64,000 bases of DNA from the NCBI GenBank assembly GCA_951406725.2, contig OX597833.1, positions 72,478,001 through 72,542,000 of the forward strand, in the 5' to 3' direction. Positions 7,290-62,570 of the stretch are shown here, piece by piece. Below the pieces are notes generated by a model. The model did not search any database, was not told where the DNA came from, and saw nothing but the letters and a program-made list of their open reading frames with translations. The stretch comes from Octopus vulgaris. Lineage: Eukaryota. Numbering within the stretch: the first letter of the stretch is position 1; each line of letters opens with the position of its first letter. Made by a program: the position numbers and the translations under genes.

Positions 7290-8534
7290 ATAGATGCATA
7301 ATTAGGCAGATCGGTGCAGAATTAGCTGAGGATTATTGTTCAGGTTGTTGCAGTTCTGCTTGCACCCCATGGAATTTATTATCCGTTGGGCAGATATCAG
7401 CTGACTATCACATATGACGAGTGTGTGTTCACACCTGCCCACCTATTTAAGGTAAAATGCTAATTAGATTCTTCATTGGTTCCCACAAGACACATTTCTC
7501 TTGGCCAATCAAGCAAATATTCATTAAATTATAAGAGTCTGTTAAATTCCCCCGGCCATGTCTACCTTGAACGTAATCCTTAGCGCAATGACAAAGCTGG
7601 CTCTTTGAATTACAGGTATAATCTTTCAGACAGGCTTCCTCACAGTTTCCACTGACCTGATTTCACTCGCAAGGCTTGACCTATTAAAAGTCTGGGATCC
7701 ATGAAGACACATGGCAGGAGGTGCGGGGGGGTTAAAGCTTGGAACCTCGTAATTGCTAATTACTCAACCACTCAGATATGGGGATAGACATAAACACACA
7801 CACAAAGTGTGTGTGTATCATATGTCGGTGTGTGTGTGTGTGTGAGGGGGTGGTAGGGGGTAGGCCTAAGTTTGTGGTCAACAATTTTGCTTTGCAACCA
7901 CACAGTCTCAGGTTCAGTCCCACTTTATGGCACTTTGGGGCCAAGAGCCTTCTACTATAGCTGGAATGTTCCAGTCAGCCTGTGGCCACACTGGGGCACC
8001 ACATGGAAGGGTTTAGTGGAACAAATTAACCCCAGTAGTTACTTTTTTTTTTTTTAATCTGGTACCTATTCTATTGGCCTTTCTAAGTTTTGGGGACATA
8101 ACCCAACACAAGTGGTAGTGTTTCTGTCTACCAAATTCCCTCACCAGGCATTTGCTGACCTGGGGCTAAAGTAGACAAGGACACTTGTCCAAGGCACACT
8201 GGGACTCGACATGGTTGCCAATGGGGTTTGTTAACCACACGGCCGTTTCTGTGGGTGGATGTGGAGCCTCTGCTTTGTCGGTTTCAAACCGTCCAACCCA
8301 TGCAAACATGGAAAAGAGGATATCAAATGATGGGTGTGTGCGTCACTGCATGACAAACGCTGTTGGTTTGCTTATGTCCCTGCATCTTCGCAGTTCACCA
8401 CAAAGAGAGGAATATAATTAGTGGCAGACTTGAAAAGCTAAGCTTTGGAGTCGATTCGATCGACCAAAACACCCTATCGCAACTGATGCTCCCCCCACAA
8501 CTACACCCCCAACAACTGAAACCACACACACATT

Positions 8535-8542
8535 AAATATAC

Positions 8543-8582
<40 letters not shown>

Positions 8583-9233
8583 ATACATACATATATACAT
8601 ACATACATATATACATACATATATACATACATATATATATATACATACATATATACATACATATATATATATACATACATATATACATACATATATATAT
8701 ATACATACATATATACATATACATACATATATACATACATATATATATATACATACATATATACATACATATATACATACATATATACATACATATATAC
8801 ATACATATATATATATATACATACATATATACATACATACATATATATATACATACATATATATATATACATACATATATACATACATACATATATACAT
8901 ACATACATATATATATATACATACATACATACATACATATATATATATATATACATACATATATACATACATACATATATATATATATACATACATACAT
9001 ATATATATATATACATACATACATATATATACATACATACATATATATATATATACATACATACATATATATATATATACATACATACATATATATATAT
9101 ATATACATACATATATATATATATACATACATACATATATATATATATACATACATACATATATATATATATACATACATACATATATATATATATACAT
9201 ACATACATATATATATACATACATATATACATA

Positions 9234-9269
<36 letters not shown>

Positions 9270-9273
9270 CATA

Positions 9274-9309
<36 letters not shown>

Positions 9310-9716
9310 CATATATACATATACATACATATATATATATATACATACATATATACATACATACATATATACATACATACATATATATATATACATACAT
9401 ATATACATATATATATATACATACATATATATATATATATATACATATATACATATATACATATACATATATACATATATATATATACATACATATATAC
9501 ATATATACATATACATACATATATATATATACATACATACATATATACATACATACATATATATATATATACATATACATACATACATATATACATACAT
9601 ACATATATATATATATACATATACATACATACATATATACATACATACATATATATATATACATATACATACATATATATATATACATACATACATATAT
9701 ATACACACACACACAT
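8535..9716. repeat. ~1.2 kb compound (TA)n/(TACA)n microsatellite
   Basis: Seen directly. It produces the spurious Tyr/Ile/Cys/Met/Val ORFs in the track. Confidence 0.97.
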
Positions 9717-11138
9717 ATGCATTATTTATTACTAGAATGTCGTCGTCAGAGAGTTGGGTGTTTCTGACAAAGCACAACAAACCTGTGTTGGTTCCTTCCT
9801 CTCCTAGCCTCCCCCTCCCCCTTTCCCGTTCTCTCGAATACAGACACACATCATGCGTCTGTGCGTCCATGTGGCTATATGTGTTGCCTCACATGCATCA
9901 TACACACATGCACATGTGCCTATAGACATAAGTTATATGCCTATATAAGGAAATCAATCCATGCACACACACACACATATATACACATACACACATATAT
10001 ATATATATATATACACATACACACACACATATATATATACACGCACACACCCACACACACTACAGGCTGATAAATTTATTGATTTATTGATCCGGTTGAG
10101 GCCAGCCTTGCTGTACTGCTACTCCACAACACTAAGAGTGGAGTAAGAACTCAACTGAGTGTTCACTTCACTCTAATACTCTTCCACTCAATCTCAACAC
10201 CGAACTGAGAAGAGCTCGAAACGATTGATTCACCTGCTAGAAATAGCAGCTAAATTACCTTAAATCATGTTCAGAACATCTTTAAAAAACAAGAGTACAT
10301 TAGCTAATATATTAAAGAACAGTATAGGATAGGGTGGTCATGGCTGGAATGCTTCTGGTTACAGGTCTGCTCAATAGGATTGACCTGGGGTCAAATAACC
10401 CCCACCACCACTACTAGGCTGCTTGGATCCGTGGATTAGGGATGAGGGGTGGGTGGAGTAATAGAACACAGAAAATATGTGAATATCTCTCTCTCTCACA
10501 CAATTTTTATTAAATCTTATCAGAAGACAAAATGGTGAACTGGCAGAATTGCCCTTTTTTGCATTTCTTGTTCTTTACATTCTAAGTTCAATTCCCAGCA
10601 GGATTGCCTTTTATTCGTGAGGTCAATAAAACAAAAGTACCAGTCATATACTGGGATCAAACAGATTTCACCCCTCAAGTGTTGGTCTTGTGCCTAAATC
10701 AGAAAAACCAAGAAACCCTTTATCTCATGGGACCCCAGATTCTTTCAAGTAATACAGGGCTTCCTCACAACGCACACTGAAAAATATTGGCTTAAGAGAC
10801 CAAAGCTGAAGGCAGTGCCCCAACATGGCCACATTCCAAAGTAAAAAAAAAAAAATCAATAAATAAATTTTAAACAAATAAAAATTAATATATCTAATTC
10901 ATTGACCCCCACCTCCTAATCTGCCAAATTGAACTTAAAACTCAATCTTGTCAAGTTATTTTGATCCGCCCAATTTAGATAATTCCCCCCCACCCAGCAC
11001 TTCCCCACTGAAACTAAAAATATTAAATAGTTGAACAGATTAAAAGATAATGTAATCTAAAGTTTCTTACATAACATGGCAACGAACTTACGGGAAGTGT
11101 TACCTTAGACTTTATAACTCACATCTAGGACACCTGTA

Positions 11139-17252: not shown

Positions 17253-20026
17253 CTGTCAAGAGAAAACAATGAAGTCTTGTTAGAAGAAAGCAAAGCATTA
17301 AACATTACTGACACACCACCACAACCCTCATTACTACTACTACACAAGGGACAACCATTCCCACAAGAAACGAAGAGAGAGATGTATGAAACAAATTCTG
17401 TACTGACAGTCGTCTTCCCTGAAAATCTCAAATTTACAAGCAGTGAGGTTATTTTGTTCACAAATCATTGAAGTTACAAAGCCATTTACACTGAGGTGAA
17501 ATAATAAAAAAATTACATTTATTTAAAAAGAAAAACTGGTAAGGGTTAGTAACAGGAAGGGCATCCAACTGTAAAACAATGCCTCCATAACCCACTCCTC
17601 TAACCCCTGCTGGCAGAGAAAAGCAGACGTTCAAATGAAAAGATGAGATGGACATGGTCAGTAGGGGCCATGTCTAGCGATGGATCTATTTCGGGTCAAT
17701 AAATCTGATTGACTAAAAAATCTTGAGAATTTCGAAAACTGTTTGAAATTACAAACCCAGCTTTAAACTTTTTGATCCCATTAAACATCAATGAAAGGTG
17801 GAATGGGTAGGAGGCCTTTCAATGTGGCACATGTATTCCTGCATGTTATACATGTGCACACACACACATTCCAACAAGTTAGCAGGTGTAAGGCGTCAGT
17901 ATTGAATAATATAAGGGAACTCCATTAACGCTTTACATCACTGCCATCTTTATTGAAACAACAAAGCTGAAAGTTCAAATGATCCCAATTGAGCCCTTGG
18001 TCACCTGGAGGCTGCGATCAGTGGAAGACAGATTGTAAAGATCTTCAATGTACACATTTCTACCATTTATTACCTGCAGCATTGTGCCAGAGTCGCTGGG
18101 ACTGCAACTGATGGCCCACAACTCAGAAAACTTCAGATCACAACAGCATAAGACAACTTATGCAGGGCAGCATTCAAAGAGTTAAGGACAGTTCTACGGC
18201 TGCCTGAACACCCCCACGAATACACCAGCATCAATATTGTCTACCTCCATCAGAATGTCTGGTAAATAGGTATGCTCTACAGTTGTAACTAAAAGACATT
18301 CATAGACTGAACTCCAGTGGGGCCCCTAGCAGGTTTAGGTAACCCTGGGGAGGTGTCCTGCTCTAAGACAAACGTCCCTTTTGTGGTAACAAGGTTTATG
18401 GTTGAGTTACAAATATGATGTTGACAAGAATTGTTTAATGCGGCCTGTGTAGTTGAGAAAGACCCACGGGGAGTTCGAAATCTCCACGGGGAGACAAGTT
18501 TGAAATATATCAAGTTTTCTTCAAAAACATTAGTTCTAGTTGTAGACATGAAGGTAGATGCACATTGTTACATTAAGCAGGTATCAAGATTGCATGATCT
18601 GTTCTAACTACAAGCTATCAACCAGATGTGTATCTCTGTTCCCAGGATTAAACGCCTGGTGAACGGTCACCCGTGCAAATACTGGTCACGCCCCATTATT
18701 GGTGTTTCTAAGGTCCACTTATTTGAGTGGCACGTTCAAAACTATCAGTCACTTCTTGAAAATGGTTCGGTTCTTATTTTCATACATTCAACAAAATCTT
18801 TTGTCTAACGTTTGCTTAAAAGTTTCAGAGATACCCCCCCGCCATTGGCTTTTCGAGTTATTTTTATGGAAGTTTTATACAGAGCAAGAGACACCCAACT
18901 GATATATATATATATATGTGTGTGTATATATATGTATAAATGCGTGTTTGTAGCTCTCTCTACATTCGATTTGATATGCTACATATGTGTGGAATAATAA
19001 AAGAAGACTTGAGTTAAGAGCTAAACGAAGAAGGGTGGGACTTCTGTCGAGATATGAATCACTGGCCGTCAAATAGAAAACGAATCCATAAATACTGACA
19101 CAAAGACAACGTTTTCGGTTTTCCTTCATATTTTATGGCTGTAAAAACCACAAAAAAGGAAAATACGAAAAAGCAAAACACAATATATTTTAAATAAAAG
19201 TGTTTTTTATCGTTAAATATAAAATACGTATTTAATGGAAATAATATTGTTTGGTCGAATAAAGAAGTCGACGAAATTGTTTTTGAAAGTTTAAAACAGA
19301 AGAATTCTTGTTTTGTCTCCCAAAAATAATAATTCGGTGGATCAAGAAATACTTGGATCTTTTAAACTAAAATATTTTATTAAATTACATTTTTTCATAA
19401 ATTAACAAAAAAAAAAAAACGACTGAAGCGAAATTTTTCTTTTAGAAAAACAATAAAGCAACGACTGTCAGGTTTTATTTCCTGTTTGAGGGTGAGGGCC
19501 ACAATAGGAAGGGTTTCCGTGCTTAAGTGGTCACCAGGAAGGAAATAATTAACGAAATTAAGACCTTCTCCCGGGGACTTGACTGGGATTTTATCTTTTC
19601 TATCGTTCGACCCTTTCTGTTTCTTTCATTCTTTCAGGGGTCAATAAAATAAAATAGCAGTTAAATACTGGTGCGATATTTATTGCGATTCTCGCAAAAC
19701 ATCCAAGAAGTGAATGAAAGAGGAAAAAAGAGGAAGAATGGAAGAATGAAAGAGAAATTCTTGTGAAGAAGCAAAACAGAAATAAGAGAATGGAGACGAG
19801 TGTCTGTCTATCTTTCTATCTTTCTATATATTGTGTGTGTTTGTAGGATGAAGATTTATTGACACGGTTTATAAAATAGAAATAAAACCCTAATTTAGCT
19901 TTTAAAAAAAACCCAAGGAAATATAAATGTAAAAAAAAGGATAAATCGAAAGAAATAAGGCAAAACTGATCGCAAAAGACACCGGTTTGGGAGGAGAGGA
20001 AGATTTTGATAAAGAATTGAACTTAC

Positions 20027-20095
20027 CAGAACACGGGTACTGCTGGTTCCTTGGTCTATGGCCCCAATTAAGGGGCCGTAAGAGGTGAGAGCCAT
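20027..20095 (-). CDS. GK: Glycerol kinase coding exon 1 (MALTSYGPLIGAIDQGTSSTRVL)
   Basis: ATG at 20095, DQGTSSTR phosphate-binding signature, donor CTG|gtaagt, 69 nt. Confidence 0.96.
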
Positions 20096-20179
20096 GGGAG
20101 GGTTTCTATGGTCCTTTAAAACAGAGAGAAGTGAGGGTTCGAACCTCTCTCTCTCCCACACAAAACCAGTTTCTTTGCC

Positions 20180-20240
20180 TCGACACCGCGCGCGCGCGCA
20201 CGCTGTTGACCTGGTGACCTTGGCTGTCACGTGACCTGCT
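20180..20240 (-). promoter_or_regulatory. Putative glycerol kinase proximal promoter (CG tract, AGGTCA direct repeat, GTCACGTGAC E-box)
   Basis: (CG)n at 20187-20199; TGACCT at 20207, 20215 and 20232; GTCACGTGAC at 20226-20235. CpG-retaining region 90-140 nt upstream of the ATG. Confidence 0.55.
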
Positions 20241-21595
20241 CGAAACCGCGCACTTGCCTCGCTTTCCCTTTATTTCTTATTCTCAATGGTTATCTGGAGA
20301 TCTCGAGTTCACATCCACCCCACGCTCCGTATCAAACTTTATTTATTAATAATCGTTGTTATTCTAACAGATGGCGGAATCGTTTGATCGGCAGCGAAGA
20401 CGGCTTTACCGCATTCGTTCTGATTTCACATCCTCCCGACGTCCAAATACTAAAGTACCCCACGAGGGAATGACCAGCCTCCCTCGTTCTTCAAAAGAAA
20501 ATTCCTAATCTTGTTCCTAAATCAGAAACCGTTATTTTAATCCTGAATAACTCTGCTGTTTCTCTCTTCTTCTTCTTCTTCTTCGTTGCTTTCGAGGCGG
20601 TCTTTGGTCGCCGACCGAAAACCTTTCCCTTCTCTGCTTTTTTCATAATAAACTTTGCAATTTTGGTAACGAAGTAAAACCAATTGAAAATAATCTGGGA
20701 ACCAACTTTTTCCCCTTTCTCTCCTCCTGAAAAACGAAAACACAAACACACACTCTCTCTTTTATTGTTTATTTTTGTCATATTCGCAGCAACTCATTTG
20801 TCGAGCCAGGGAGGAATCCTCTATGTGGTCATTCGACCTACTAAAAACAGCAGCCAAATCTCCCTTCAAAATTAGATTAGGGATTCTTGATGTGAATAGA
20901 AATGTGATAGACGATGATGTAATTCTAGAGACACTCGAAAAAGACAATCGTCACGGATGGAATGCTTCTGATCAAACGTTTGCTCCGTTAAAATAAAACT
21001 CATTCTACCGAGCTAATATGGGAGCATTTATGCAGTCGTTCGACCTGTTAGAAATAACAGCATAACCCTCATGCTTCTGTAGTTTTCAAAAAGAGTAGTG
21101 AAGGCACATTAGACAATAAAGTCCCTCATATAGACAAAACGGTCACGACTGGAGAGTGCTTGATCACAGGTCTTTTCGATGAGATCTGATCTAGCCCTAA
21201 ACAACAAATTCTATCGCTTTTTTTTTTTTTACCTCTTCGATCTTTTTTCCTTCAAAGACGAAGATATAATTTAATCTCTTCGAGATTTACTTTGCAGTCT
21301 TTTTGAGATCGATAAAATAAAGTCTCAAACAAATCCTTGGCATGATTTTGGTCGCCTATATCTTCCCCTAAAATTTAGGGCCTTGTATCAATGTTTAAGC
21401 TCATTTGTATTTACTGTATTCGGAAAATTGTTGCAAGCAATTAGCATTAAAATAGCTGAAATTTTGGTAAAAACACTGCAACTCGAAAGAGAATTCCTAG
21501 AAAAGTTTCGAAAGAAGTTAAAAGCAAATTTGGTGAAGGTGGAATTAAAAACATTTTATTTTTGACAAAAATCGTAAACTGTTGTTAGTGTAAAG

Positions 21596-30821: not shown

Positions 30822-30985
30822 CACCCACTACACTCTCGGAGTGGTTGGCATTAGGAAGGGCATCCAGCTGTAGGAACTCTGCCAGATCAAGATAGGAGCC
30901 TGGTGCAGTAATCTGGTTCACCAGTCCTCAGTCAAACCATCCAACCCATGCCAGCATGGAAAGCGGACGTTAAACGATGATGATG
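30822..30985 (+). mobile_element. RTE 3' fragment nested inside a SINE (30645-31010, minus)
   Basis: Interrupts the SINE sequence ...TACTGTTAAGC|ATTTCGCCTGG... and ends in (GAT)n. Confidence 0.75.
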
Positions 30986-40491: not shown

Positions 40492-41449
40492 CTGCAACAG
40501 AGCAAGAGATCGTCATTGAGCGGTTAACACTAGAATGCATAAATTACTCACAGGAAGACATTTAAAAAACAGCAAAACACTGGCAAATCTAAAAGCTTCA
40601 CTGAAAAAAGCTGCAACAATTTCCAAGTATTCCAACTGCGTCCAAAAAGAGTCTTTCACAGATTCTCCATGCTTTTGCATTTTTCAGTTTTCTTCTTCCT
40701 CTAAGAAATGTAGATTTTCCTGTTTCGAGGATTGTGAACCAGAAGAATCAGAGTTAAAAAAATAGAATTGTTATTTAGCCAGTGGCTAGTCGTGATTGAG
40801 CAGACCTATAATCCAAGGCATTCCAGCCATGACCCATCCTATCTAGGTCTACATTATCTACTGAGGTGTTTCTTTTTTTAAAGTGTGGACGGTTGTTTCA
40901 AGAAAGTGGTTGGAGCAGGTGTTTGCTCCCAAACCTGATTAAGCAGATCCATGATTAAAGGTATTCTTGATCTGACCATCCTGCTTAGCTACCAAGGACT
41001 ACATTATCTGATTTGACCCTTACTGTTATTTAGTAGAATGTGATCGCAGAGACTTGGCTGCTATTTCTAACAGATTGAGCAACCATGTAGAAACTTACTT
41101 GGTGGCTCATTAAAAGATATGGTGTCCAGCTGAAGTGAGGGTGGTGTTGAAGTAAGGGAGATGGTGTTGCTGATGTTGTGGGAAGTGATGGGAATATGGA
41201 GGTTGTCCATCAAAGTGTCAGGTGTTTGACATAATCTGAGATTTTGATGTGAGATGAGGGGGTTAGCCCTGATGAAACAGATCTACGACCAGAGGTACAC
41301 CAGCTGTCTGGGACCATTTCGTTTTTTACTCAAACATAGTATATCTAAGACTAAGCTCCTTCCCTAAACTCATTGAAAGATCTGTGTCCCCCAAAACAGA
41401 CATTCCCCCCACCTAACTTATTGAATTTACAAATACTTTTAGATTTTAT

Positions 41450-42030
41450 GTTTCAGACTTGTTCCCTTGGACATCACCAAACCCTTTGACTGGGTCTGGT
41501 ATGCAAACTTCCTACCAATGGGCTCCCCTCTCCCCTTTCGGAATGGTAGCTTCTTATCTGATCCCATCATTACAACATGTGTAGATGCAGCTCCTCCTGT
41601 CTCATTCTGTAAGGCCCCAGGGTTTAGTTTCTGCCCCATCCTCTTCTTTCTGTACACCAATGACCTATTTGTTTCCATATCCATCAATACTCACTCCTAC
41701 ACAGATGAGAGAAACCTCCATTCATTCCAAACTTTCCCCAACCATTTATCATCCACACAACAAACCTGCATTGGTTCCATAAAGGGAGACCTTAAGAGAA
41801 TCCTTCAGCAATGCCAGGCCATTCTTGGAAAAGTCAAGACCTACACCTATTGAGAAAACTCAACCACAGCCCACCCCACTAAACATAACAGACACTCAGC
41901 TAGGGCCTTCAGTTTTCCAAATGCTGGGCTTCGTTGTCATCAAGCATTTCTCTTGACAAAAGCACATCCTTAACAGTTAGAATCACATCCTAAAAATTGG
42001 AACTTCTCTTAAGGGCCAAAAACTATGTCA
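41450..42030 (+). mobile_element. Decayed CR1/Jockey-like LINE reverse transcriptase fragment
   Basis: LDITKPFDWVW (LD..KAFD.V), PQG, PILFFLYTNDL, HSYTDE (YADD-like). Confidence 0.75.
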
Positions 42031-44492: not shown

Positions 44493-44911
44493 AGAATTGG
44501 TTCGACTGTGGCTCAGAAACCTGGACGTTATCAAAGAAGCTTGAGAGGCGGTTGGATGGAACCTACACTCGCCTCCTTATGAGAGCTCAAAATCTCTCGT
44601 GGAAGCGCCATCCAACCAAAATGCAAATATATGGGAAACTACCACCTGTGTCATCTCTTGTGAAAGGTAGGAGAGTCCAGTTTGCTGGACATTGTTGTAG
44701 AGCTGAAAAAGAAGTAATTTCTACTCTTCTCCTCTGGAAGCAATCTACTCGCAATACCAGAGGGCGCACACTCTCCTACCCTGATGTAATCTCCAGGGAT
44801 ACAGGCATCCAGCAACAGGACCTCCGTAATGCCATGATGGACCGTGAAGTCTGGCGTAGCATGGTAAATTCCATTGTCTCGACCACGGTCGAACAATGAT
44901 GATGATGATGA
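44493..44911 (+). mobile_element. Young 5'-truncated RTE-type LINE with uninterrupted ORF end, (TGA)n tail and 11-bp TSD
   Basis: GSETWTLSKKLERRLDGTYTRLL...FAGHCCR...DREVWR. TSD TGTGTGTAAGT at 44482-44492 and 44912-44922. Confidence 0.9.
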
Positions 44912-49166: not shown

Positions 49167-49289
49167 CTGAAACAAAGCAGAGAATTGGAATACAATGATA
49201 AGGACAAAAAACAAAGAAAAAGAAAAAAATTGAGCTGAAAGAAATAACTGAAATGAGTGAAATATATGTGGACGATGTATGTGTGTGTG

Positions 49290-49356
<67 letters not shown>

Positions 49357-49367
49357 TTTAAAGAAGG

Positions 49368-49418
49368 AGCTTCTACAGGACTAGAACTGTTTCATTCAAA
49401 TGAAATCATCAGGAAGCT
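49368..49418 (-). ncRNA. Type I hammerhead ribozyme motif (mirror copy, sense to the USP pre-mRNA)
   Basis: The reverse strand reads AGCTTC-CTGATGA-tTTCAttTGAAt-GAAA-CAGttctagtcCTG-TA-GAAGCT. Confidence 0.7.
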
Positions 49419-49463
49419 TGCTGTCAAAATAAGTTCTGGATCTTAGAACTTATTTTGACAGCA

Positions 49464-49514
49464 AGCTTCCTGATGATTTCACTTGAATGAAACAGTTCTA
49501 GTTCTGTAGAAGCT
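49464..49514 (+). ncRNA. Type I hammerhead ribozyme motif
   Basis: AGCTTC-CTGATGA-tTTCActTGAAt-GAAA-CAGttctagttCTG-TA-GAAGCT: conserved core, stems I-III, GUA cleavage triplet. Confidence 0.7.
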
Positions 49515-52500
49515 CCTTCTATAAAATAAATTACTTTACTCTGCTATGTATTGAGTACCTTATTTACTGTGGTTAACCCCGACTCAACCCGGGACCTACA
49601 CATATATATATATATATATATAGATAGATACACACACTTGTGTGTGTGTTTTAGAAAAACTTGAGAATCCTTTTGACAATTTGAGTTAGTTTTACTTTAC
49701 CTGGCGGCATGAGTGAGGGGGTCACTTATGTTGTTTATTCTTAGGATGGAGTACGTGATGGCCTCTGTGGGTGTCTGGCATTCACCAACTGCCTATTATT
49801 GAACAGCCAGCCATGCCACTCACCACACACAAGCAATGTAACTCAGTCTTATATATCAAGTACCAGTATTTGTATATCTATTATGAACCCTTGAAATTTG
49901 AAAGACAAAGTCAACTTGACCAGGGTTTGAACTCAGAACCTAAAGAGCTGGAACTAAATACTCCTAAAGCACCTGTCCGACATTCTAATGCTTCTGCTTC
50001 TGAGACCCCCTACTTACTTTATCTCAGGCAGAAATAAGAGAATGAAAGAAAAAAAGAAATAAAAGACTCGTTTCCTGAACACGTCTGGTTTTATCAGTGG
50101 AGTTTATTGCAAGAAAAATAGCAGAAGTTTTAGGAAAGATTATTTACAACTGGTTTCGTTAGTGAGACAGCTTGCAATTGAAACAGGTGTGATTGGATCT
50201 TAGAGAGGTAATTAGAGAAATTAGTCTGCAGACATCAGATGCATTGCTTCTTATATTTCAGCAAACAAATTTCGAGGAATTATGGAAGTATAAAAAAGTA
50301 ACCCCACCTTCCGTATGGTTTTGGTCCTTAGGTTTTTGACAGGATTAACATACTGCTTGGTTGAACAACACCATCACATCTTTGGGTACCTTTAATGCAT
50401 TTGGATTAGAACCCCTTTCCAGTTGTGATCCCACCAAAGACACTTATCTGAAGATGTCTGAGCTAGGCATCAGCCACACTGAATGCTCCAGTTTGGGAGG
50501 GTCTAAATAGGTCATGGCTGTTAGCCTCATTCTTCTAACTCCTAAAAGATATACATCCACATTCCTTTCTCTCCAATTATCAAAAGGAGACAGACAAGCC
50601 AGATGCTTGTTTGCTTCTTTCATGGTTTGAGACAACATTTGGCCACCCCTCCTGACTCTTCTGTCACTGTGTCCTTTCCTATTCACCTTCTTTTGGAACA
50701 TGTTACATAGAGAGTATGCTCTGGGTCCTCACCCCAATCTACCCATACACAACACAGAGTAACCCTCAATCTCATCCTACTTGACCTATCCCTGTCCTCT
50801 TTATCTCTCTCTCTCTCTCCTCTAACCCCAGTGACACTCCTCTTTCAACCATTGCCCCCGCCTCTCTTATTCCTCTGCTCAGCTCTGATGGTGGTGTTCT
50901 TTAATTCTGCAAGCTACAAAGTGACCCCCAATAGCACTGATGTCATGGGAGAAGCACACATGATCCTCTGCAAAGGGACTGGCACTAGAAAAGGCATACA
51001 ACTGTAGAAGCTAATGCCAAACATCAGACAGTGGAACAAGATGTAGTCGCTTGACTCCTTGGATTCTACCTGCCTATCCAACCTATGCCAGCATACAAAG
51101 CGGACATAGAATTATTTTATACATCCATGCACACACGCACATAAATGCATCAAACATGCAGAGTTATAATCTTCCAATATTTATTCTAACTCTCTACATT
51201 CTGTGTTCAAATTCCATGAAAGTGAATTTTGTCTTTCATCCTTTCAGGGTTTCTCAAGGGCCAGTCCACGCCAATGGATTAACTCACAGACTCTACTGAG
51301 TAACAAATGTTTTTTTGTCTTTGGTCAATGTTATTTCCTATTTGCTACTCTTCCATTCAAACTTTGCTTTTCTGACCTGGACATCCATGTTTTGAAACTG
51401 ACCTATTTTCCATTGCATTTCAGATAGATCCACTGCTGATTTGCTTAAATAGAAATATCGTTATAGCAAATATTCTGCTGAATACCTTTGATTTGTTTGT
51501 CACTGGCTTGACCTTAATCACTTGAGCATGTCCCTTAGTGGCTGACAAAACGTGCATCTCTGATGATGAGCAGAACTAGTAGGAGAGCATCATAGCCATG
51601 TGTTGAGAGGGACCCTTTGGGGTTTAAATAAATATAACAAAAGCATAGTTTGAAGGAAGCCATTTTTCATAGTTTCTAAGGGTAAGCAAATCAGAAAGAA
51701 CAGTTGCTACCCAAGGACAAAACATTGTGTTGCACAGTTATTGGTTGAGCTGCCTTATTGTATCTGATTTGTGTCTCTGTGTCCTGAGCTTAAATTCTAG
51801 TCCCTTGCTGAGGTCCTATGAAATGTGTTATTCAGAAAACTGCTTCCGGATGATGAGGGCTGAGCAATGGTCTCACAACACGGTGCCTGAAGCATGTGTC
51901 ATTTATCGCAGCCCCAGGTTGATTCAAGCAATCGTACTAAAGTTGGGTTGATTGATATTTTACAGAAATCAGCCACATGGACCTGTTCTTATGCGATAAA
52001 CACAATCTTCCCTTTGTTTAACTGCATTGCTATCACCACCACCACCACCACTCTGGCACTTGGGTGACCTTTAGAAGAATCCATCCTAAGGTAAGCATGT
52101 GGACGAGGTCTTCAACCTGGAGTGGGTGAGTTGTGGTTTCTTTTAACCTGTTATCCATGTCGAAGGCCCTAGAAAAAGGTCATAGATCCTCCTTCACCTT
52201 CCAGTTAAACCATTAAAAGAACCAAGATAATGATATGAGAACTGTTGTATAACACCAGTTCTGGTCAAAAGTGTTGTCATTTAGCCAGAGTTCAGCTGTG
52301 GTCAAGCAGATGTCCAGAACAGAAGTAGTTGGTCAAATGACTTAGTTTAGTCTTTAGTACCATAACAAGAATTTATTATGTATGTACAATGCCAGAAATT
52401 TTGAGAAGTAACAGTTGATTGTGTTGACCTCTGTTCTTATTTTTAGGGGCATTCATCTGGGATTAATTGATCCAGTTTTAACCAGTAAATCCAGAGCATC

Positions 52501-53874
52501 ATGGACAGAAGCCAATCATACTGTCAAGGGTCTCGGATGTCCAATATGGAAATCATCAAGCAATTGTGATTCTAATGATGGATAGCATATACGCAAGGAT
52601 CAAATATTAATTCAAGATCCAAATTAATCATATTAATCCATGTTTTTAGTTTCACAACTTATCAATTATGCTACCTTGCGAAAGGCTCCAGTGGAACTGC
52701 ATCTGCCAATGATGAAATGCCAAAGCAACAAAATCAAATGTCTGAGCAACAGTTGTTGAAAGATGTGAAACTTTAGAATTTGACCTAAAACCCAAACCAT
52801 AAATACGGAAAATTCAGCAAAGGTAAAACTGGTGAAACCCTTTCAGCTTGCATAAGTCAGCCGCTCGCACACATGCCAGATGCTCAATAGATGACCCTTC
52901 ACTTTAACAGATGTTTTCACCAATAAGCCATATTTCCAAGAGATGTTCTGCATATGGTTCTTGACATCAACACTTGCCCTCAGACACTCTTTGACATCAA
53001 CAGATGTCATGCAAACGGCTACACGTTTCCAGCACAGCTTCTTCGGCCAGCTAGTGATGTTAATTCATGAAAACATTGAGCAGAGGTGTTTGTTGATATT
53101 CCCCACTAGGAAATCATCCTGTAGCTATTTGCTTTCAAAGATGAGGGGAATGGGGGGAAAAAATGAAAAACGTATGAAACAGTTAATGAAAGAAAAATTC
53201 ATTTAAGACGGTGTTTTTGGGGGTGGGGTGGGGAAGAAGACCAAACACTCGTAATAAACGAGGATAGATGTATCAAACTATTTTTGTTTCGTTTCATGCC
53301 AGCATACGTAAGACGAATGTATTGTTTTACAACTGGATGCTCTTCCTCTCACTAACCTTTATGTTGTTTTTTTCAAACAAGGAATCTCTAATTTAATACG
53401 TTAGCTACACAACACAAAGACCTCATTTGAGTTTCCGTCAATGAAACCTACTTACAAAGGCTTTAAGCAGTCCAGAGTTATACTAGAAAACATTTGAGCA
53501 GGTGCGGTGCAGTGAAACTGAACCTGAAACCAGCTGATCGGGAAGCAAACTTCGAGACCACAGTCAGAATTAATGAGAACAAGCCTGAACACAAAAGTTT
53601 TCTTCTCCAGATGTAGCTTACTTCCTAACAGATGTCTAACAGACTGAAAACTCGAGAGATAGTTTAGCAAAAGTTAATCAAATGAAAGACGTAATCTTAA
53701 TTTGACATCATAACAATAACATGGAAAACAAGACCAACAGCTGCGTATTTTGATGTTAGTAAGGGACAGCGTGAAACCAAAGTGACAATGATCTTGGAGG
53801 ATAACGTGCTACTTTCACTTTCTCACACTTCAGTTGGCAGAAGTTCGTAGGCTGCAGGAGATTACTATTATTAC

Positions 53875-53926
<52 letters not shown>

Positions 53927-55987
53927 TAAACACTATGTTTGAGGCTAGCTCGTTGTTTAAGATGGAAAAGTGTAGAAATTTTGCTGTTCATTTTCCAGTA
54001 ATTTATTTCACAATCGAGCCTTAGTGGTTGCTCAGTCAGTTACAAATCACAATAGAATCTCTCTCTAATCATACATTTCCATCTTAAACTATACAAACAT
54101 GAACAAAAAATTCTACGCAATTTGATAGTCACAAACCTTCCATCTTAAAAAAAAAAACATAAAAAATTTTAATTGCACCAGAAAATATTTTCTACAACAA
54201 ATTAAGTGATAACAAGAAAGCACACACAAAAAAAATTCTTTGACGGCAACCAAAAGAAAAGATATCAGCTAAAATTTGAGAAAGTAAAAGTGGTACGCTA
54301 TTATCAAAGACTGCCCAAGTTAGTTGCGAGGAAAAAGGAAAATATGAAACACTAACATGTAGTGAAAACAATGTCCGTCCCAGGATGGGTACCATTTCTT
54401 TGTAGTCTAACAGCAAGTTATCACTGATGCAACAGATGTTTGAGATATAATCCATGAAAAAATGTTCGAATTTCATGGCTAGTTATCTTTGGTTGTCGAA
54501 GTTACAGATATTCTGACAGTGTTTTAGATTTCATAAGACACTGTAATGTCTGACGACAAAAAAGGACGCCATCTTTTTTGTTTCTTTGACTTTTGAAAAA
54601 AGGTAAAAAAAAAATGTATGACGGGAAATTACGACCGCTTACGAAGAGAGATGGAATTTATAGAGATTGTGGATAGATTGAGTGAGAGTTCGTATCCCGT
54701 CAACGATGCTGTGTTGTTGTATAAACAGTTTTGGTTGCTAACTCTAAGTGGCAATCATTCCTTGGTCTCTGCAATGTGTCCATCTTCTAAAAGACGGTCG
54801 GGTATGACTCGAGTGAGATTCGTCTCCTGTTACTACCAGGTTGCAGAGGTTCTCTTATTGGTTTGTTGTTCTTGTTGTTTAGCAAGTTTTTTCGTCTGGC
54901 AGACTTAAGATCAAAGCCAGTCCATCATGAGACCATATCGTCTTATATTCAGACACAGTTATGTTGAACGATTCCTTCGTTTTTAAGACACAAGGGTATG
55001 AATCGAGTGACAAATGGACTGCTATTTCCAGCAGGTCAAGTGAACACGTTGATGTTCCCTCGTTGGACCAAGTGCAATTAGTTTCGTTAGTTGGCAGTAC
55101 CGAGTTCAAATCATCTCTGAGGCACAAAGAAGCCAACAGCCAAACATTCAAATATATCAATTCTTGCGGAAAAGCGAAAATTTTAGTCTTTTACAAACGA
55201 TTAAAAGGAAACGATCCCTGATTTGCTGCAGAGTGAATTTAAGGTCCCGGTATAAAGAGTTTGATTCAATTTCGATCCACATTCTTTTATTTTAATGATT
55301 GTATTGTCTGGCTCCAGGTCAAGCTTGATTGAGTAGACTTATCTATGATCAAAGGTACCGCAACCATAAATATCTATCGGCCCCACCGCCCGCAGCTCGA
55401 ACGAATTCAAAACCATCAAATTTGTCCCTGCTTTTTTTCTTCTTAATGACTAGGTTATGATTTCAATGAAATTATTTTTCTATCATTTCTATAGAGTCGA
55501 GTTAACTGCCCAAGCTCCTTCGTTAATTCGCCTTTTCTATGATGGATGCAACAATCGAGTGCTTTTAGACAGCATTTTGTTGCAGAGGTGAATTAAGTAC
55601 AGGATTCTAATAGGTTTTGCTTCTTCATGGTTTCGCCTAGAGGAAGGAGATGTGGCCATGGTCTTCAGAACCACTCCGATATCGATGTAAGTTGAATAGT
55701 TGCAGGAAAAAGAAAGCTTGGTAGACATTCTCGGAAGGAGGAACTGGACGTCGTGGTCAGCGAGTTGACATAATATGAGGAGGAACAACGAAGGAACCGT
55801 GAGTATTTGGTGAAGGTGACACGGGTGCTGCCAATTCGGAGGAGTGGAGGTCATTGTAGGAGAGGAGAAGAAGCAAGATGGCGAGGAGACCGCAGCAGGT
55901 CTGTCGAGGTTGGCCGGTTTCGGTGATTTCGAGTCGATGACGATTTCTTTTTTAATGATATGAAACCATAAGGCGGCGGCGGCGGCG

Positions 55988-56188
55988 GCGGCGAAGTGGC
56001 AGAATCGTTGTCAGCAGAATGGAAGATGAAGAAATGCTTGGCAGCAGTTCGTCCGTCTTTTACGTTGATTTCAAATTCCGGCCAGGGTCGACTTTGCCTT
56101 TTCATCCTATCGAGGGCGATTGTGGGGTTGATGTAATCGATTCATCCACGCCTTCCAAATTGCTGGCCTTGTGCCATAATTTGAAACT
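55988..56188 (+). mobile_element. tRNA-derived SINE (Nin/Deu-like core)
   Basis: GGCGGCGAAGTGGCAGAATCGTT head and GTCGACTTTGCCTTTTCATCC core. Confidence 0.65.
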
Positions 56189-57304
56189 TATACGAAACAA
56201 AAACTATTCGAGAGGATTGTATTTAGTCCGGAATCCAAGTGGAGTTTTAGGGGTCTGTGTTAGCAAAATAAATCAATAGGTGAGAGAGAGAGAGTTCAAT
56301 AAGGGGTCGATCGGAAGGATACAGGTTAACATTTTGTGTCTTGTTCTTCGTATGAGAGTGAGGAAAGAAGAAAAGTCGGGTAAGGTTCGCTATTAATCAT
56401 CGTGTTTTCTAGTCTATTATAAGAACTAGCAAAGTTTAGGCGCAGTAAATGGCGAAGCCAACGCAGTCATATCATCTGCTAGAAATAACAGCAAAATCTC
56501 CTATAAATTAGACACCAACGTCAACGAAAGGCAAATTAGACAATGTAGTCCTGGAGATATTGTGTTAAAAAGTGAGAGAGAGAGAGAGAGGGATGAGAGG
56601 GATGGCGCTGTTCAGTCGGAAAGCTTTTGATCAGAGATGTGATTGATTAGAGATGACCAGGTCTACCGTCCACCTCTTTAACATTTTGGAGACAACCCAA
56701 CAAGGGAGCATCCATGTGATTTCTTGACCTGTTAGAAATAACAGAAGTAAATGTTTCTAAAATCTCATCATTTCGTCCGAAATAAAGAAAGGATTTGGTT
56801 GTTTACAGTGATTTATTGGGACGAATTTAAAAGGAAAAAGCGAAAAACGACCAATTTTTGATTATTTTTTTAAACTTTTACTTGCGTTTCACTGAGTCGC
56901 TAAAATGGGGGAATAACAGAAAAAAGCGTCGCAGAAAAGGAAAAACTATTTAAAGAAACAACTGGAATTTGCAATTACATTAAAAGAATTGAAAATAATG
57001 ATAAGAGTCCGTCTTTGAACTAATCCATCTTGTATATCCCTCTCCTACCAAAAACCAGCGAATATAGGGGAGCGGGGAGGCATCGCTCAAACTGCTAGAA
57101 ATAGCAACCAAGGCTCCAGCAACTTATACCTTACTTCTTTGAAGTGAATGATATAATTAATGCCAGATATTCGTTGTTGGGCTTATCTCAACTGGAATCC
57201 CTTCGATCGGAGCTGACCAGCATAACCATGAATTGATTGGTTCCCCAATCTCACCTGATTTCCACACACCTTTCTGAAAAAGGCGTATTTTGCAGATAAG
57301 ATGG

Positions 57305-57456
57305 ACTTCTTTCAGATTCCAGCCACCGAATCCACTCACGAGGCTTTGGTCAGTGCAAGGCCATAGTAGAGGACACTTGCCCAAGGTGCCACACAGTGGG
57401 ACTGAACCTGGAATCATGCAGTTGGGAAGCAGACTTCTTACCACACACCCATGCCT
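57305..57456 (-). mobile_element. tRNA-derived SINE with CORE-like segment
   Basis: GGTTCAGTCCC B-box followed by CACCTTGGGCAAGTGTC. Related copies near 7880, 16285, 37500 and 53430. Confidence 0.6.
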
Positions 57457-57489
57457 ATATATATTATTTATATTCATATTTATATAATA

Positions 57490-57888
57490 CTAGCAGTATC
57501 GCCCGGCGTTGCTCGGGTTTGTAAGGGAAATAACTATATAAGCATTTTTAGAGATGTAAAGTATAATAGCCATCTCAATATGGCTAACCACAAAGGCGGG
57601 GTGGGTGTTACTGTAGCTTTTTACGTTCTGAAATTTAATAATAAATTTTTAGAGAGTTACTTCCCTTATATATGCCAAAAATGCATTAAAAATGGGAAAA
57701 TTGATGGTAAATCTTTTTTAAAATCGTAGACTCATCGTAGACGCGCGCTAATACCCAGAAGGGCTCGATATGAATCACGACTATAAGATACCCGGTTTTG
57801 GTTACACTGCACCGCAAAATGTGGGAGTAGTTAGGAATCTAAATCGTAGGAGACAGACAGCACACAACCTCACTTTTATATATAAAGA
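57490..57888 (-). mobile_element. Non-autonomous Helitron
   Basis: Minus strand reads A|TCTTTATATATAAAA ... CCCGAGCAACGCCGGGCGATACTG-CTAG|T. Confidence 0.82.
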
Positions 57889-58089
57889 TGTATAATTATA
57901 GGAGTATGTGTGTGTGTGTGTGGGGGGGGGCACATTGTGTAACATTTATTGCATTTTTGACTTTGAGAACAAAAATGTTTGCCGCCATACAAAACTATAT
58001 CAGCCAAGCAACTGAGCTTCTCTGAATGCATTGAAGGCATCGTAGCATAATCTGAAGACTATTTCAGAAAGTTATCTCTCATTCTCTTT

Positions 58090-60235
58090 GAGCAAAAAAA
58101 GACAAATTTAGATGGGGCAAAATGAGTAAGACAAGACAAGGTAAATTTGCCTCTTCAATTCTCCAGGATAATATTTGGGAAAAAAAACTCATAACACATC
58201 AATATCCATCTTTAGAAATTGGAAAGATTAGAAATTCAACAAAAATTCGAAATATATCAGTCAAATTGTAAAAGGATCGTGGAAAAATGGTACCTGATAT
58301 GAAATTAAACGAAACTTGACTAAATCTAAAAGCTTAACATAAAATATTCTGTTTAGCTTCTTCAGAATCTGCTGGAATGGGTTTTTCATGGTAAAGGGAA
58401 GAAATTATTGAAACTGGTCATTGCTCCTTTTATGCCAGTTTAGACTTAATTTTTGGTAATTGAAAATTATCATATTAGACATTAGTGTAGGAAAAAAATT
58501 GTCTTAGAATCCAAAAGAGAAAAAGCCTATTGGTTGTTGAAGAGCAAAAATTATCCAGGTGTTTAATTAGCAACCTCAATTGCAATTAGGTCAAAAACGA
58601 AAGGGAATTTCTTGGAAAACAAAACCCTAATCACCTGACTATGTTCCAAACCCTCTCAACCTCAACAACTATGCTAACCAATTTTTATTCCCAAAGAAGA
58701 TGCAACAGAATAAAAGGATGAGGATGTGGTACTTGCAATGGAATGGTTTCAAATGGACAGAGAAAAAATAACAAGAAATCAGAAATTACTCATTTTGCCC
58801 CGGTTATAAAATAATATAATATCGTCTTCCATAATGAGAGTCTAATAAAGAAGCTAGCTATTGTAAATGCTTCAGTGTTAGTCTGAGAAATACAAATAAA
58901 TCCATGAAAATAAAAGACAAAACTTCTATAAAATGTCAATGAAACAAAAATTGTTTTGATGAGTCTAAATCATTTGTTGACAAACAACTCGTCATCATCA
59001 TCATCATCATCGTTTAACGTCCGCTTTCCATGCTAGCATGGGTCGGACGGTTCAACTGGGGTCTAGGAAGCCAGAAGGCTGCACCAGGCCAGTCATATCT
59101 GGCGGTGTTTCTACAGCTGGATGCCCTTCCTAACGCCAACCACTCCGTGAGTGTAGTGGTTGCTTTTTATGTGCCACCGACACAGGTGCCAGACGAGGCT
59201 GGTGAACGGCCACGCTCGGATGGTGCTTTTTACGTGCCACCGGCATGGAAGCCAGGCGAGGCTGGCACGGCCACGATCGGATGGTATTTGTTACGTGCCA
59301 CTAGCACGGAGGCCAGTCGATGCGGTGCTGGCTACAGCCACGTTCGGATGGTTCTCTTATGTGCCACCAGCACTGGTACCACAAAGATACAAATTCCATT
59401 GATGTTCATCGATTTTGATTTTGATTTGATTTTTTGATTCTTTGATTTTCACTTGCCTCAACAGGTCTTCACAACTAGAGTTATGTGTCCCAAGAAGGAA
59501 GGTATGCACAGGTGGACTGACTACATCCCAGGTAGGGGCCACGCAATTTCTGATAAAATGAACGACCCAACAGAAATGGAACAAACAACCAAAAGAGGTT
59601 CTGCTGAATTCCATTTTGCCAAACATGTTTCTTTTGCAAACATTGATCATCTTCTGGCATTTATGGGACGGTAAAGTTGATGCCAAAAATTATCAATGGA
59701 AAGAACCAAACTTTTCAATGGAAACATTCTAAATGGAATTAGTTTTGCATGGAAAAAGAATGGTAACAGATGCACAGCACAAACATTTTCTATCGTAATT
59801 GAGGAAAGAACAGATATTTTTCACTGAGCTGAATTTTGGCAGTATTTGCAAGAATGACATGGATCCACTGTTAGATGTTGTTGGAAATGGAACGGCTCTA
59901 GGGCCGCTTCCCAAGGCTGTCAAATTGTGGTTGCAAGAAAGAAAGATTCATTTTAGAAAATATTGTAAGATTTTCAAGTGATAATTATTCTACTATAATG
60001 GATGCTCAAAAGTGAGTTCCAGAAATCCTTGAAATATGATGCATCTGTTTTTATTATGGGACGTGGCCAACATTCTTTCACTCTTTGTGGTGGTCATATA
60101 GTTAGAGATTTCACATCTTTCTTTTCCTGTAGTAGCAACAGTCAATGGGACCTGACATTTATTGGGGAAAATGATTGTGACAACTTGCCCTCTAAAATGT
60201 CTAACTTTAGACAAAGGGGTTTTGCTGATAAATAG
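58090..60235 (+). pseudogene. Decayed coding sequence, candidate orthomyxovirus-like (Quaranjavirus-like) nucleoprotein endogenous viral element, split by a LINE fragment
   Basis: Collinear frameshifted peptides: AGMGF..TG.IAPFM, LDISVG, FVDKQL|AISDKMND..TTKRGSAEFHF, EQIFF...FGS.CKND, IHFRKYCKI[SSDN], SVFIMGRGQHSF. About 1.6 kb once the insertion is removed. Identity rests on recalled motifs, not on a search. Confidence 0.5.
58992..59543 (-). mobile_element. RTE-family 3' fragment inserted into the candidate viral ORF
   Basis: (CAT)n tail at 58992 and the shared 3' UTR. Removing it restores a continuous frame. Confidence 0.8.
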
Positions 60236-62570
60236 TTATTGTAGTGATGTATATATATATAGCTATACTGTAATATAAATATATATAAATATATATAAAT
60301 ACACACACATATATATGCACACACACACATATATAAAACTGTGTATCTATAGTTATAGTTATAATAAATAGTTATTGTAGTGACATGAGAAGAACTTGAT
60401 GTGTTGTTTGTTTGTTTCACAAGGTGACAAAGTTGATAGAACCAGAATTGATGACATAAAAAAAAAACAACCATGGAACAAAATACATAATAATGCTTTC
60501 CTTCAGTTCTACAGAAAGTAAATTTAATGAATGTCAAATTCTAATCTGAGTATTTCAACTTTCATCGTTTGCATTGACTGACATCATTAAAATATAAAAA
60601 TATCTCTTGATTTTTTGTTTTTAAAGATGAATTAGCAAAGAACATTAAACCACCCGAAATTGATCCAAGACACTGAAACATTGATGATGTTTACCTTGCT
60701 GGAAAGGTAACAAAACATTTAATTAATTAATTGACCTTTGAATAATGAAATCAGTGATCATTTGAAACTGCAAATGGAATTTTTGTGTTCAAATAATAAA
60801 GAGGTTTCCTTTCCATCGCTAAACTAGAGAGAGACAGCTCATAATTTAGGCATAGCTCCTATGTCTAGCATCCTACCAGTTGTTCATTTCCTGTCCATTA
60901 TGCTAGAAAGCAACAGATGAAAGGATCTTAATGATCAATGGAAGAGTTTAACTGAAGACAATGTGACAATTTCTATAAAAAATATTTTTGAATATTGATG
61001 GCCAAAATAATGCCAAAGAAGACTTTGGAACACAGCCCTGTCCTCTGCCATGTCACATATTGTCAGACTGTACAACCCATGCCAGCATGGAAGACAGATA
61101 TTGAAAGATGATGATGATGATGATGATGACTGATACAAATTAGAAGACATGAAAGATCGATTTTGTATTTGAAAATATAACTTGTTATTCTATTCTTCTG
61201 ATTGACAATGTTTCCAACTTTGTCAGTTTTTGTGAAATGAATATTCTCTCAACTGAGGAATGAAAACAACAACAATAAAGAATCAAATATAAAGGGCTTA
61301 TTGATTTCTTGCATGTGTGTAAACCCGAAAATATTGATTTCCCAAACTGGAAGTTTTGGGTGGAGGCGGGGTAATCAGTTTAAATCTACTTCAGCATGTG
61401 TAGGGTATCTTAGTGACACCCAGGTAGAATATGATAATAAAGAGGACCCCTACGCTACTCGTTCCCTCTTTCAAATTAGAACACAGAAACCTTAGAGGCA
61501 CAACTGAATTCCACAAAGCATAAAATGTGAAAGAATTAAAACAATTTTCTGGTATGTCTCATGGAATTCTAAGTTTGCATATGTATAGGAATGACAGATC
61601 TTTAATGGTGTATAACTAAGGGAATCCCATCAGACAAGCTGTGGTATTATCCACATGAGTTTATTTGGAATCAGTCAAGTAAAATTACCCAACAAATGAC
61701 TGATAACTCATTTCAGAAATATTGAAACGCAACAACAGTGCTGGCAATGTTGATAAGATGTCATACTGTGGATGGTAGAATCAAGGGTTCACATACTGCT
61801 ACTGGCACTGCAATGATATTTAGTTTCCTCTAACTCAAACCCCTCAACTATAAATAGGTACCATGGTGAGGTACATTCAGATTACTACTGCACGGGGTAG
61901 GAACACTAGAATATGTTTTGTTAGAAAAGGTTTTTGTTTTAGTTGCTTTGTAGTTCTGAGTTCAAACTCTTTTCTTACCAAATTTTTGCTGAATACAATG
62001 TCTTTGTTTCAATTGATTTCGAAAACAATAAAAAATTTATTATAAATTTATTAATTTATTATAAAGCTGGTGTTTGGAACATAAATTACCATGAAGTTTT
62101 GATGAAAAGTTTTAATTACGATCACTTTAAAACAGAAAGCATGTATCATACAACCAGGGGTGGTTTCAGGTGGGTTGGTATAAAGAATGTTCGGCCCTTT
62201 TTCAAGTTCTCAGACAACAGAAAACCAATACAACTGAACTTTAAATGCTTCAAAATTAAAAAAAAAAGATGTTTTATCCCCCTACAACATTCTTCAATCA
62301 GTCCCCCACTTTAAGACCATCATCTGACCTTTGGATGTCATTCGTGGAGTTGAGTCTATTGCCAGCATTCAGTGCTGACCCCTGGACAGTGAATAACTTT
62401 CTCCCATAAGTCACTGAAGCTTTGAAAAGGGTCATGGGCATTACTCTTTCTCCCACCTAAATTAATTTTTAAAAAGCAAAGAGGCAGAACCCCCCCCCCC
62501 CTACCACCACCACCACCACCACCCACCACCACCACAACAACAACAACGTAACAATGTATCGGTTACTCAC

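Follow-up and report, generated by a model that had tools for sequence, protein, structure and literature searches.

A probable Penelope-like fold-back insertion with paired hammerhead motifs in a USP2 intron of Octopus vulgaris

INTRODUCTION

Endonuclease-bearing Penelope-like elements (PLEs), such as Penelope/Poseidon and Neptune, carry a hammerhead ribozyme in their terminal repeats. Here we describe an insertion of similar appearance in an intron of the USP2 gene, within a 64-kb stretch of the Octopus vulgaris genome (contig OX597833.1; hereafter the window, with positions counted from its first nucleotide), where a preliminary description had pointed to a palindrome encoding two hammerheads. 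PLE copies are described as inverted and 5'-truncated, their insertion is biased towards (TA)n, and one end carries a tail of 30-40 bp (PMC8557442); their head-to-head junctions bear palindromes that have been read as products of self-priming (PMC3846280), and their hammerheads occur in pairs on opposite strands, 100-700 bp apart (PMC4209133). Two start sites define the tail, both strands are nicked and extended at A+T-rich DNA, the hammerhead is protein-assisted, and insertion proceeds from uncleaved RNA (PMC11167929), while PLE hammerheads with a weak stem III work as dimers (PMC6765202). The octopus locus shares with endonuclease-bearing PLEs the terminal-repeat hammerhead, the 5' truncation, the inverted head-to-head copy, the tail at one end only, the (TA)n target and arms that span the cleavage site. 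It differs in that the terminal repeat stands alone, the tail is 70 nt long and no open reading frame starts in the motif. Naiads share the (TA)n bias but are without canonical hammerheads, and those of cephalopods are reported to be old remnants (PMC8557442).

The motif can also be set beside hammerheads of other animals. HHR_Amex2 of the axolotl (PMC7229834) is likewise a canonical-type metazoan type I ribozyme with a U-U at the base of helix II and a high copy number. Its stem III comprises 2 bp and a tetraloop, whereas in the octopus motif the core pair is followed by 3 bp and a loop of 8 nt, and its copies lie in tandem whereas those at the octopus locus are inverted. About 60,000 axolotl motifs carry the U-U; the HHR_Amex2 monomer cleaved to 22% in one hour, and the dimer did better (PMC7229834). 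The minimal hammerheads, or min-HHRs (PMC4209133), resemble the octopus motif in their type I topology, the palindromic centre of loop III, dispersed truncated copies and close opposite-strand pairs, but their defining features, namely a short helix I, a long helix II (7-8 bp), an additional base between 9 and 10.1, a conserved G10.1-C11.1 and a helix III that is absent or tiny, are all missing from it. The preliminary description had called the motif 'minimal'; with a 6-bp stem I, a stem II of four positions and a real stem III, it falls outside this published definition. Edited Harbinger repeats of frogs and Penelope repeats of lizards (PMC5625713) have in common with the octopus hairpin that a young repeat in a transcript pairs tightly with itself around a short loop. 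For those repeats editing has been shown; the octopus duplex differs in that it buries a ribozyme motif. The giant squid has 235 Hammerhead_1 matches (PMC6962438), and the presence of hammerheads in a cephalopod is thus no novelty as such. Our literature search, which covered papers and had repeat databases outside its scope, found none on an octopus Penelope hammerhead or retrozyme family, for which a consensus quite possibly exists already, and none on a self-locking role for a head-to-head antisense hammerhead in an intron.

RESULTS

A head-to-head insertion in an intron of USP2

Inverted-repeat comparison of the window recovered the palindrome as first noted, with 87-bp arms and three mismatches: positions 49351-49437 and 49445-49531 (87 nt each) are 97% complementary across a 7-nt spacer and mismatch at 49361/49521, 49379/49503 and 49400/49482. 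The insertion itself is larger than this palindrome, a 250-bp unit at 49352-49601 that is bounded by TA repeats at both ends. On the left, a (TA)n run at 49322-49351, preceded by (TATC)n and (TG)n, is the probable target site. The left arm (49351-49437, minus strand) is the 3' end of an element, tail-less and sense in the USP2 pre-mRNA, and its outer end mirrors an end at 49531 that recurs in the repeat family described below. The head-to-head junction, or fold-back point, occupies the 7 nt at 49438-49444, and other copies differ 5' of 49445. The right arm (49445-49531, plus strand), identified from the inverted repeat and from family contigs, is the same 3' end, 5'-truncated and antisense in the pre-mRNA. 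It continues into a one-sided, unpaired tail of 70 nt (49532-49601, plus strand), which window sequence, family contigs and folding assign to the repeat family; its right boundary was taken from the window sequence, the contig alignment having stopped at 49600. At its end the tail has a small stem-loop whose loop is rich in A and C; it contains no open reading frame start and is followed by an (AT)n run at 49602-49621 and then by (AGAT)n and (AC)n. Neither the tail nor the upstream motifs occur a second time within the 64 kb, which hold only one locus of the family. The compound microsatellites on the two sides (49283-49351 and 49597-49637) are mutually inverted, with 83% agreement over 41 nt; as they also form an outer helix in the predicted fold, the target may have been quasi-palindromic and cruciform-prone.

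The unit lies in a 13.4-kb intron of USP2 on the minus strand (49167-62570, donor GT at 62570), with the exon order taken from the USP2 protein. The next exon downstream, 57 nt long (49166-49110, minus strand; acceptor AG at 49168-49167), reads VNKIDDLDGMVGLQNLGNT and ends just before the catalytic Cys, which is the first residue of the exon that follows it; the latter begins CFMNSILQ, and both match Octopus sinensis USP2. In that protein the 57-nt exon directly follows the large upstream exon, whose translation shows 100% identity over 99% of the query to O. sinensis USP2 isoform X1. This mapping places the near arm 185 nt from the Cys-box exon, in agreement with the distance of about 185 nt upstream of a splice acceptor that had been given. 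Skipping of the 57-nt exon would keep the frame and remove residues just before the catalytic Cys, among which we take the oxyanion-hole Asn to be included.

A type I hammerhead motif in each arm

A type I hammerhead descriptor of our own matched exactly twice on the two strands of the window, once per arm, as expected from the earlier claim of such a hammerhead on each strand. The core pattern gave two matches against 0.02 expected by chance in 64 kb; the two hammerhead matches mirror each other and are counted as one observation. The plus-strand motif (49464-49514, predicted cut after 49508) comprises stem I (49464-49469/49509-49514, 6 bp), CUGAUGA at 49470-49476, U49477 opposite U49488 at 10.1 and 11.1, stem II (49478-49480/49485-49487) with loop II (49481-49484), GAAA at 49489-49492, stem III (49493-49495/49504-49506) with loop III (49496-49503) and CUAG at its centre, and a GUA site. 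Its counterpart on the transcribed strand occupies 49368-49418 (minus strand, predicted cut after 49374). In both arms the core (C3-A9, G12-A15.1, U16.1 and H17) is intact, and three helices of 6 bp, 3 bp and 3 bp plus the 15.1-16.1 pair surround it, with stem I open. To judge from the sequence, this is the architecture of a canonical, retrozyme-like type I hammerhead. Predicted folds retain stems I and III and misplace stem II. Each arm approximates one extended hammerhead domain, the minus-arm fold being closed by a distal helix of 9 bp and spanning bases 6-85 of the 87; this distal extension of stem I is not visible in the second subfamily of the repeat.

The arms belong to an abundant repeat family

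The stretch is contained wholly or partly in 20 of 24 listed public sequencing runs, seven of which hold at least half of the sampled words (11 studies; highest share in any run, 0.73). Four of the 20 matching runs were aligned to 49425-49600 at 80% likeness: X1, X3 and X9, from organisms A, B and D, and X11, which is RNA only by guess, as none of the matching runs is listed as RNA; organisms C and E were left out. The alignments comprise 5638 contigs in X1, 784 in X3, 156 in X9 and 28 in X11, most of those in X1, X3 and X9 being 90-99% identical, from which we infer a family of thousands of copies in at least three organisms. In at least 15, 12, 6 and 1 contigs of X1, X3, X9 and X11 the element stops without a tail at 49531 and gives way to (AT)n, at the point that mirrors the outer end of the left arm. 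Unrelated, non-palindromic sequence stands upstream of 49445-49449 in at least three (X3), four (X9) and two (X11) contigs, a second subfamily diverges at 49464 in at least 21, 10 and 2 contigs, and at least 14 contigs of X1 and one of X11 fold back at a different point, 49459. Since other copies continue past the turn or fold elsewhere, the hairpin is a property of the USP2-intron insertion and not of the family. The hairpin turn at 49425-49442 is covered by no contig of the four runs, a gap that proves nothing. Around AAGCTT at stem I lies a short quasi-palindrome (49459-49472) where at least 15 contigs fold back perfectly; it is possibly a second self-priming point or a library artefact.

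Six positions of the alignment vary at 3% or more, three of them in loop II (49481, 49482 and 49483), one in loop III (49503) and two downstream (49524 and 49534). Variation thus affects 4/12 loop positions, 0/39 core and stem positions and 2/86 positions of the downstream flank, a count that was made by eye, as was the comparison of subfamilies. In the second subfamily 8 of 14 bases just 5' of stem I differ, and the difference ends at the first base of stem I. Read at the sequence level, the variant pattern speaks for selection having acted on the motif in the parent element. Run X11 is dominated by the letters of the left-arm subfamily at 49481, 49482 and 49524, which are minor or at half share in X1, X3 and X9; if X11 is RNA, the left-arm subfamily may be the transcribed one. 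No A>G rows are present in the 28 contigs of this run, and contigs cannot show editing, ends or strand.

The U-U pair is a family feature

The 10.1-11.1 pair of hammerheads is usually G-C, and the U-U seen here had been called atypical. It is present in both arms and in the family consensus, with no variant at 3% or more, and is the consensus of the family, not decay. It is also a published natural variant, U10.1-U11.1 hammerheads having been reported before (PMC3088659).

The core combined with this stem II pattern was found at six metagenome loci, five of which are complete type III hammerheads: L004:5997-6049(-), L005:184-236(+), L006:5997-6049(-), L007:2707-2759(-) and L009:346-398(-). L008, a chance match, was removed from the alignment. 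In the five remaining sequences, from which the consensus structure was itself drawn, 97% of cells pair, 9/15 pairs are changed on both sides and 0/500 shuffles reach the score; covariation is strong in stems I and III. All five share U10.1-U11.1 and a stem II of 3 bp; the first base of their loop I is U and the last base of their loop II is A. With E up to 0.5, none of them has an Rfam listing. Phage-like genes (labels unchecked) flank L006, whose site is GUU. The same pattern gave four matches in viral contigs (L012-L015), all of them repeats of the L006 sequence, and two in prokaryote genomes, neither a clean hammerhead; a looser hammerhead pattern gave three in viral contigs, none with stems by eye. 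These scans of viral, prokaryote and metagenome collections with hammerhead patterns returned no octopus copy.

The two arms are predicted to fold into a single hairpin

As RNA, the region 49351-49531 is predicted to form a single hairpin of -138.1 kcal/mol (z = -23; 0/200 shuffles as stable). The separate arms reach -13.7 and -13.5 kcal/mol, which leaves the hairpin ahead by about 110 kcal/mol. Within the minus-strand context the hairpin still forms in the model, where the flanking microsatellites pair around it in an outer helix of about 35 bp; in the 3' splice region roughly the last 150 nt of the intron are unpaired in the centroid. The order of the arms on the minus strand supports the earlier statement that the antisense arm is transcribed first in the USP2 pre-mRNA, and the energies (-138 against about -27 kcal/mol) give physical support to the proposal that the sense motif would be trapped in a long duplex. 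On these folding models trapping of the sense hammerhead is very likely, and because the antisense arm is made first and would zip with the sense arm, the USP2-intron copy should very probably not cleave. The antisense arm carries an A-C mismatch at 49503 of the minus strand.

Other features of the window

None of five reading frames of the window matched Pfam. One of them, at 19895-20269 (minus strand), contains a stretch that we take to resemble the start of a glycerol kinase. Two others, at 44495-44899 and 41443-41853 (both plus strand), are presumably fragments of retrotransposons of the long interspersed nuclear element (LINE) type, to judge by their look, and show no sign of belonging to the hammerhead family. 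A 1.2-kb TA/TG/CA microsatellite at 8530-9730 is 73% self-complementary. A second dispersed repeat is present at 30931, 34736, 43755, 47097 and 51077, in both orientations and with 71-87% likeness; its copies are possible sources of further duplexes in the region.

DISCUSSION

We interpret the unit as a single young, 5'-truncated, head-to-head insertion of a high-copy, ribozyme-bearing terminal repeat of Penelope-like character, and consider this reading highly probable. The inverted truncated copy, the tail, the (TA)n flanks and the recurring ends support the origin from a Penelope-like inverted terminal repeat that the preliminary description had put forward, and both the descriptor and the family contigs locate the hammerhead in a dispersed terminal repeat. 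How might the two arms have arisen? In the mechanism that we propose, a GIY-YIG endonuclease would nick the (TA)n run, reverse transcription would start at the tail end of an uncleaved RNA, cross the hammerhead and stop about 20 nt upstream of stem I, whereupon the cDNA would fold back and copy itself as far as the usual tail-less point of the family. Both arms span the predicted cleavage site, which fits an uncleaved template. For the second arm we lean towards snap-back of this kind; two separate priming events, one per strand, are the less probable alternative. The arms may also stem from two different templates, as they differ at 49482, a site that is variable in the family, but a single source followed by four later changes fits the letters equally well. 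The parent would be either an autonomous element or a non-autonomous, retrozyme-like derivative. That the unit behaves like a Penelope insertion is well supported, whereas membership of a named clade is guesswork; our guess is a Neptune-type parent, because Naiads lack canonical hammerheads and are reported as old remnants in cephalopods (PMC8557442). In the parent the motif would probably act as a slow ribozyme assisted by dimerization or by protein.

Several observations weigh against this interpretation. In the Rfam search that the preliminary description had suggested, no hammerhead model matched either query at E up to 10 (0/46 with 1.4 kb, 0/5 with one arm), the matches returned being mir-5444, WsnRNA46 and other generic hairpins with scores far under the gathering scores; this is a weak test, since the same library also missed the five type III motifs with their strong covariation. 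Isolated arms fold no better than shuffles (z from +0.4 to -0.7), and in the predicted fold of the minus arm stem II is slipped into the GAAA core, an inactive register. The tail measures 70 nt against the 30-40 bp described for PLEs (PMC8557442), and no reverse transcriptase or GIY-YIG gene could be linked to the repeat within the material covered, namely the window, the public contigs and collection scans that returned no octopus copy. The preliminary description had made its ribozyme depend on conservation of the core or covariation of the stems among copies: the core is conserved, with no variable position among the 39 of core and stems, but compensatory stem changes are absent from the variants of this young family. 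The 3' flank (2/86) is nearly as invariant as core and stems (0/39), so that invariance of the motif alone is weak evidence of selection, and three of the four loop variants are adjacent. The loose ends counted above come from 24 of 76 rows, and the contigs that fold back at 49459 could be library or graph artefacts.

An origin that overlaps with a Penelope insertion, and differs from it in the nature of the parent, is a retrozyme of the type without long terminal repeats, that is, a non-coding head-to-tail repeat that carries a canonical type I hammerhead and is moved in trans by a Penelope-like enzyme, of which the locus would be an inverted offspring. The 6-bp stem I, the four-position stem II with its U-U and the short stem III are closer to HHR_Amex2 than to min-HHRs, no open reading frame starts in the motif or the tail, unlike in anole Poseidon (PMC11167929), and animal retrozymes have been argued to derive from PLE terminal repeats (bioRxiv 10.64898/2026.07.22.740005). 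The locus is however head-to-head, shows no head-to-tail monomers of about 170-400 nt, and copies of the family end in (AT)n at a fixed point and do not run into a next monomer, as far as they can be followed (to 49600); we hold a retrozyme parent to be possible but on the unlikely side. The palindrome might instead be an assembly or library fold-back artefact of one solo copy, given that inverted PLE structures trouble assemblies (PMC8557442) and that even the best run holds just 0.73 of the sampled words. Against this, the arms differ at three places, only one bears a tail, and the outer end of the left arm is a natural family end joined to (TA)n; a copying error would yield two arms without differences and would not be expected to re-enter unique sequence at that position, which makes an artefact improbable. 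Least credible is a palindromic DNA transposon, a miniature inverted-repeat transposable element with a TA target and a hammerhead likeness by chance. A near-perfect inverted repeat within TA repeats would suit such an element, and the frog has palindromic DNA repeats that undergo heavy editing (PMC5625713), but family copies are not palindromic at the 49445 turn, carry a one-sided tail and lack fixed terminal inverted repeats, and chance would seldom produce the complete core together with three stems.

What are the implications of a buried hammerhead for USP2? The preliminary description had spoken of a built-in lock. As a design this does not stand: the geometry is common to every head-to-head insertion on either strand, the antisense arm always being made first, and is therefore no evidence of function or selection. 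A selected role at USP2 is unlikely, and the single locus is probably neutral. Recruitment of the insertion, with the duplex locking the ribozyme until editing or slow transcription releases it and the intron is cut or use of the 57-nt exon changes, might draw on its position only 185 nt from the acceptor and on the fact that no second near-perfect hairpin was found in the intron, where two further inverted pairs are 74-81% complementary and 2-6 kb apart; very high hyper-editing in octopus (PMC5625713) and the under-representation of retrozymes in Xenopus introns (bioRxiv 10.64898/2026.07.22.740005) point the same way. Yet the arms are only about 3% apart and come from a young, abundant family, geometry suffices to account for the lock, an energy difference of about 110 kcal/mol is hard to overcome, and the splice signals lie outside the duplex, so that we regard recruitment as very unlikely. 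Editing as such is another matter. Octopus hyper-editing is matched by heavy editing of Penelope in the lizard (PMC5625713), and young repeats are the main editing targets (PMC9989829); by analogy with other young inverted repeats the hairpin is probably edited by ADAR, and action of ADAR or Dicer on it, as first suggested, is a reasonable expectation. If the sense arm were edited, adenosines of the core would be changed and the ribozyme would more probably be lost than set free, a further point against recruitment. For an editing-gated intronic ribozyme, in which ADAR acting on the antisense arm loosens the duplex and frees the sense hammerhead, we see only the slimmest chance; if it were true, the hammerhead would cut the USP2 intron or shift use of the in-frame 57-nt exon.

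At face value, the locus adds to the known hammerheads an abundant, recently spread octopus repeat family with an axolotl-like U-U variant. Such a family allows a test of whether head-to-head palindromes of PLEs are formed by snap-back or by two primings. Octopus introns might tolerate ribozyme-bearing Penelope ends in the shape of fold-back insertions, which would be self-silencing, an idea to which we give a low but real likelihood. It becomes testable through the reported scarcity of retrozymes in Xenopus introns (bioRxiv 10.64898/2026.07.22.740005), and the octopus family would allow one to ask whether selection acts against an intronic sense hammerhead that is not covered by an antisense copy of its own.

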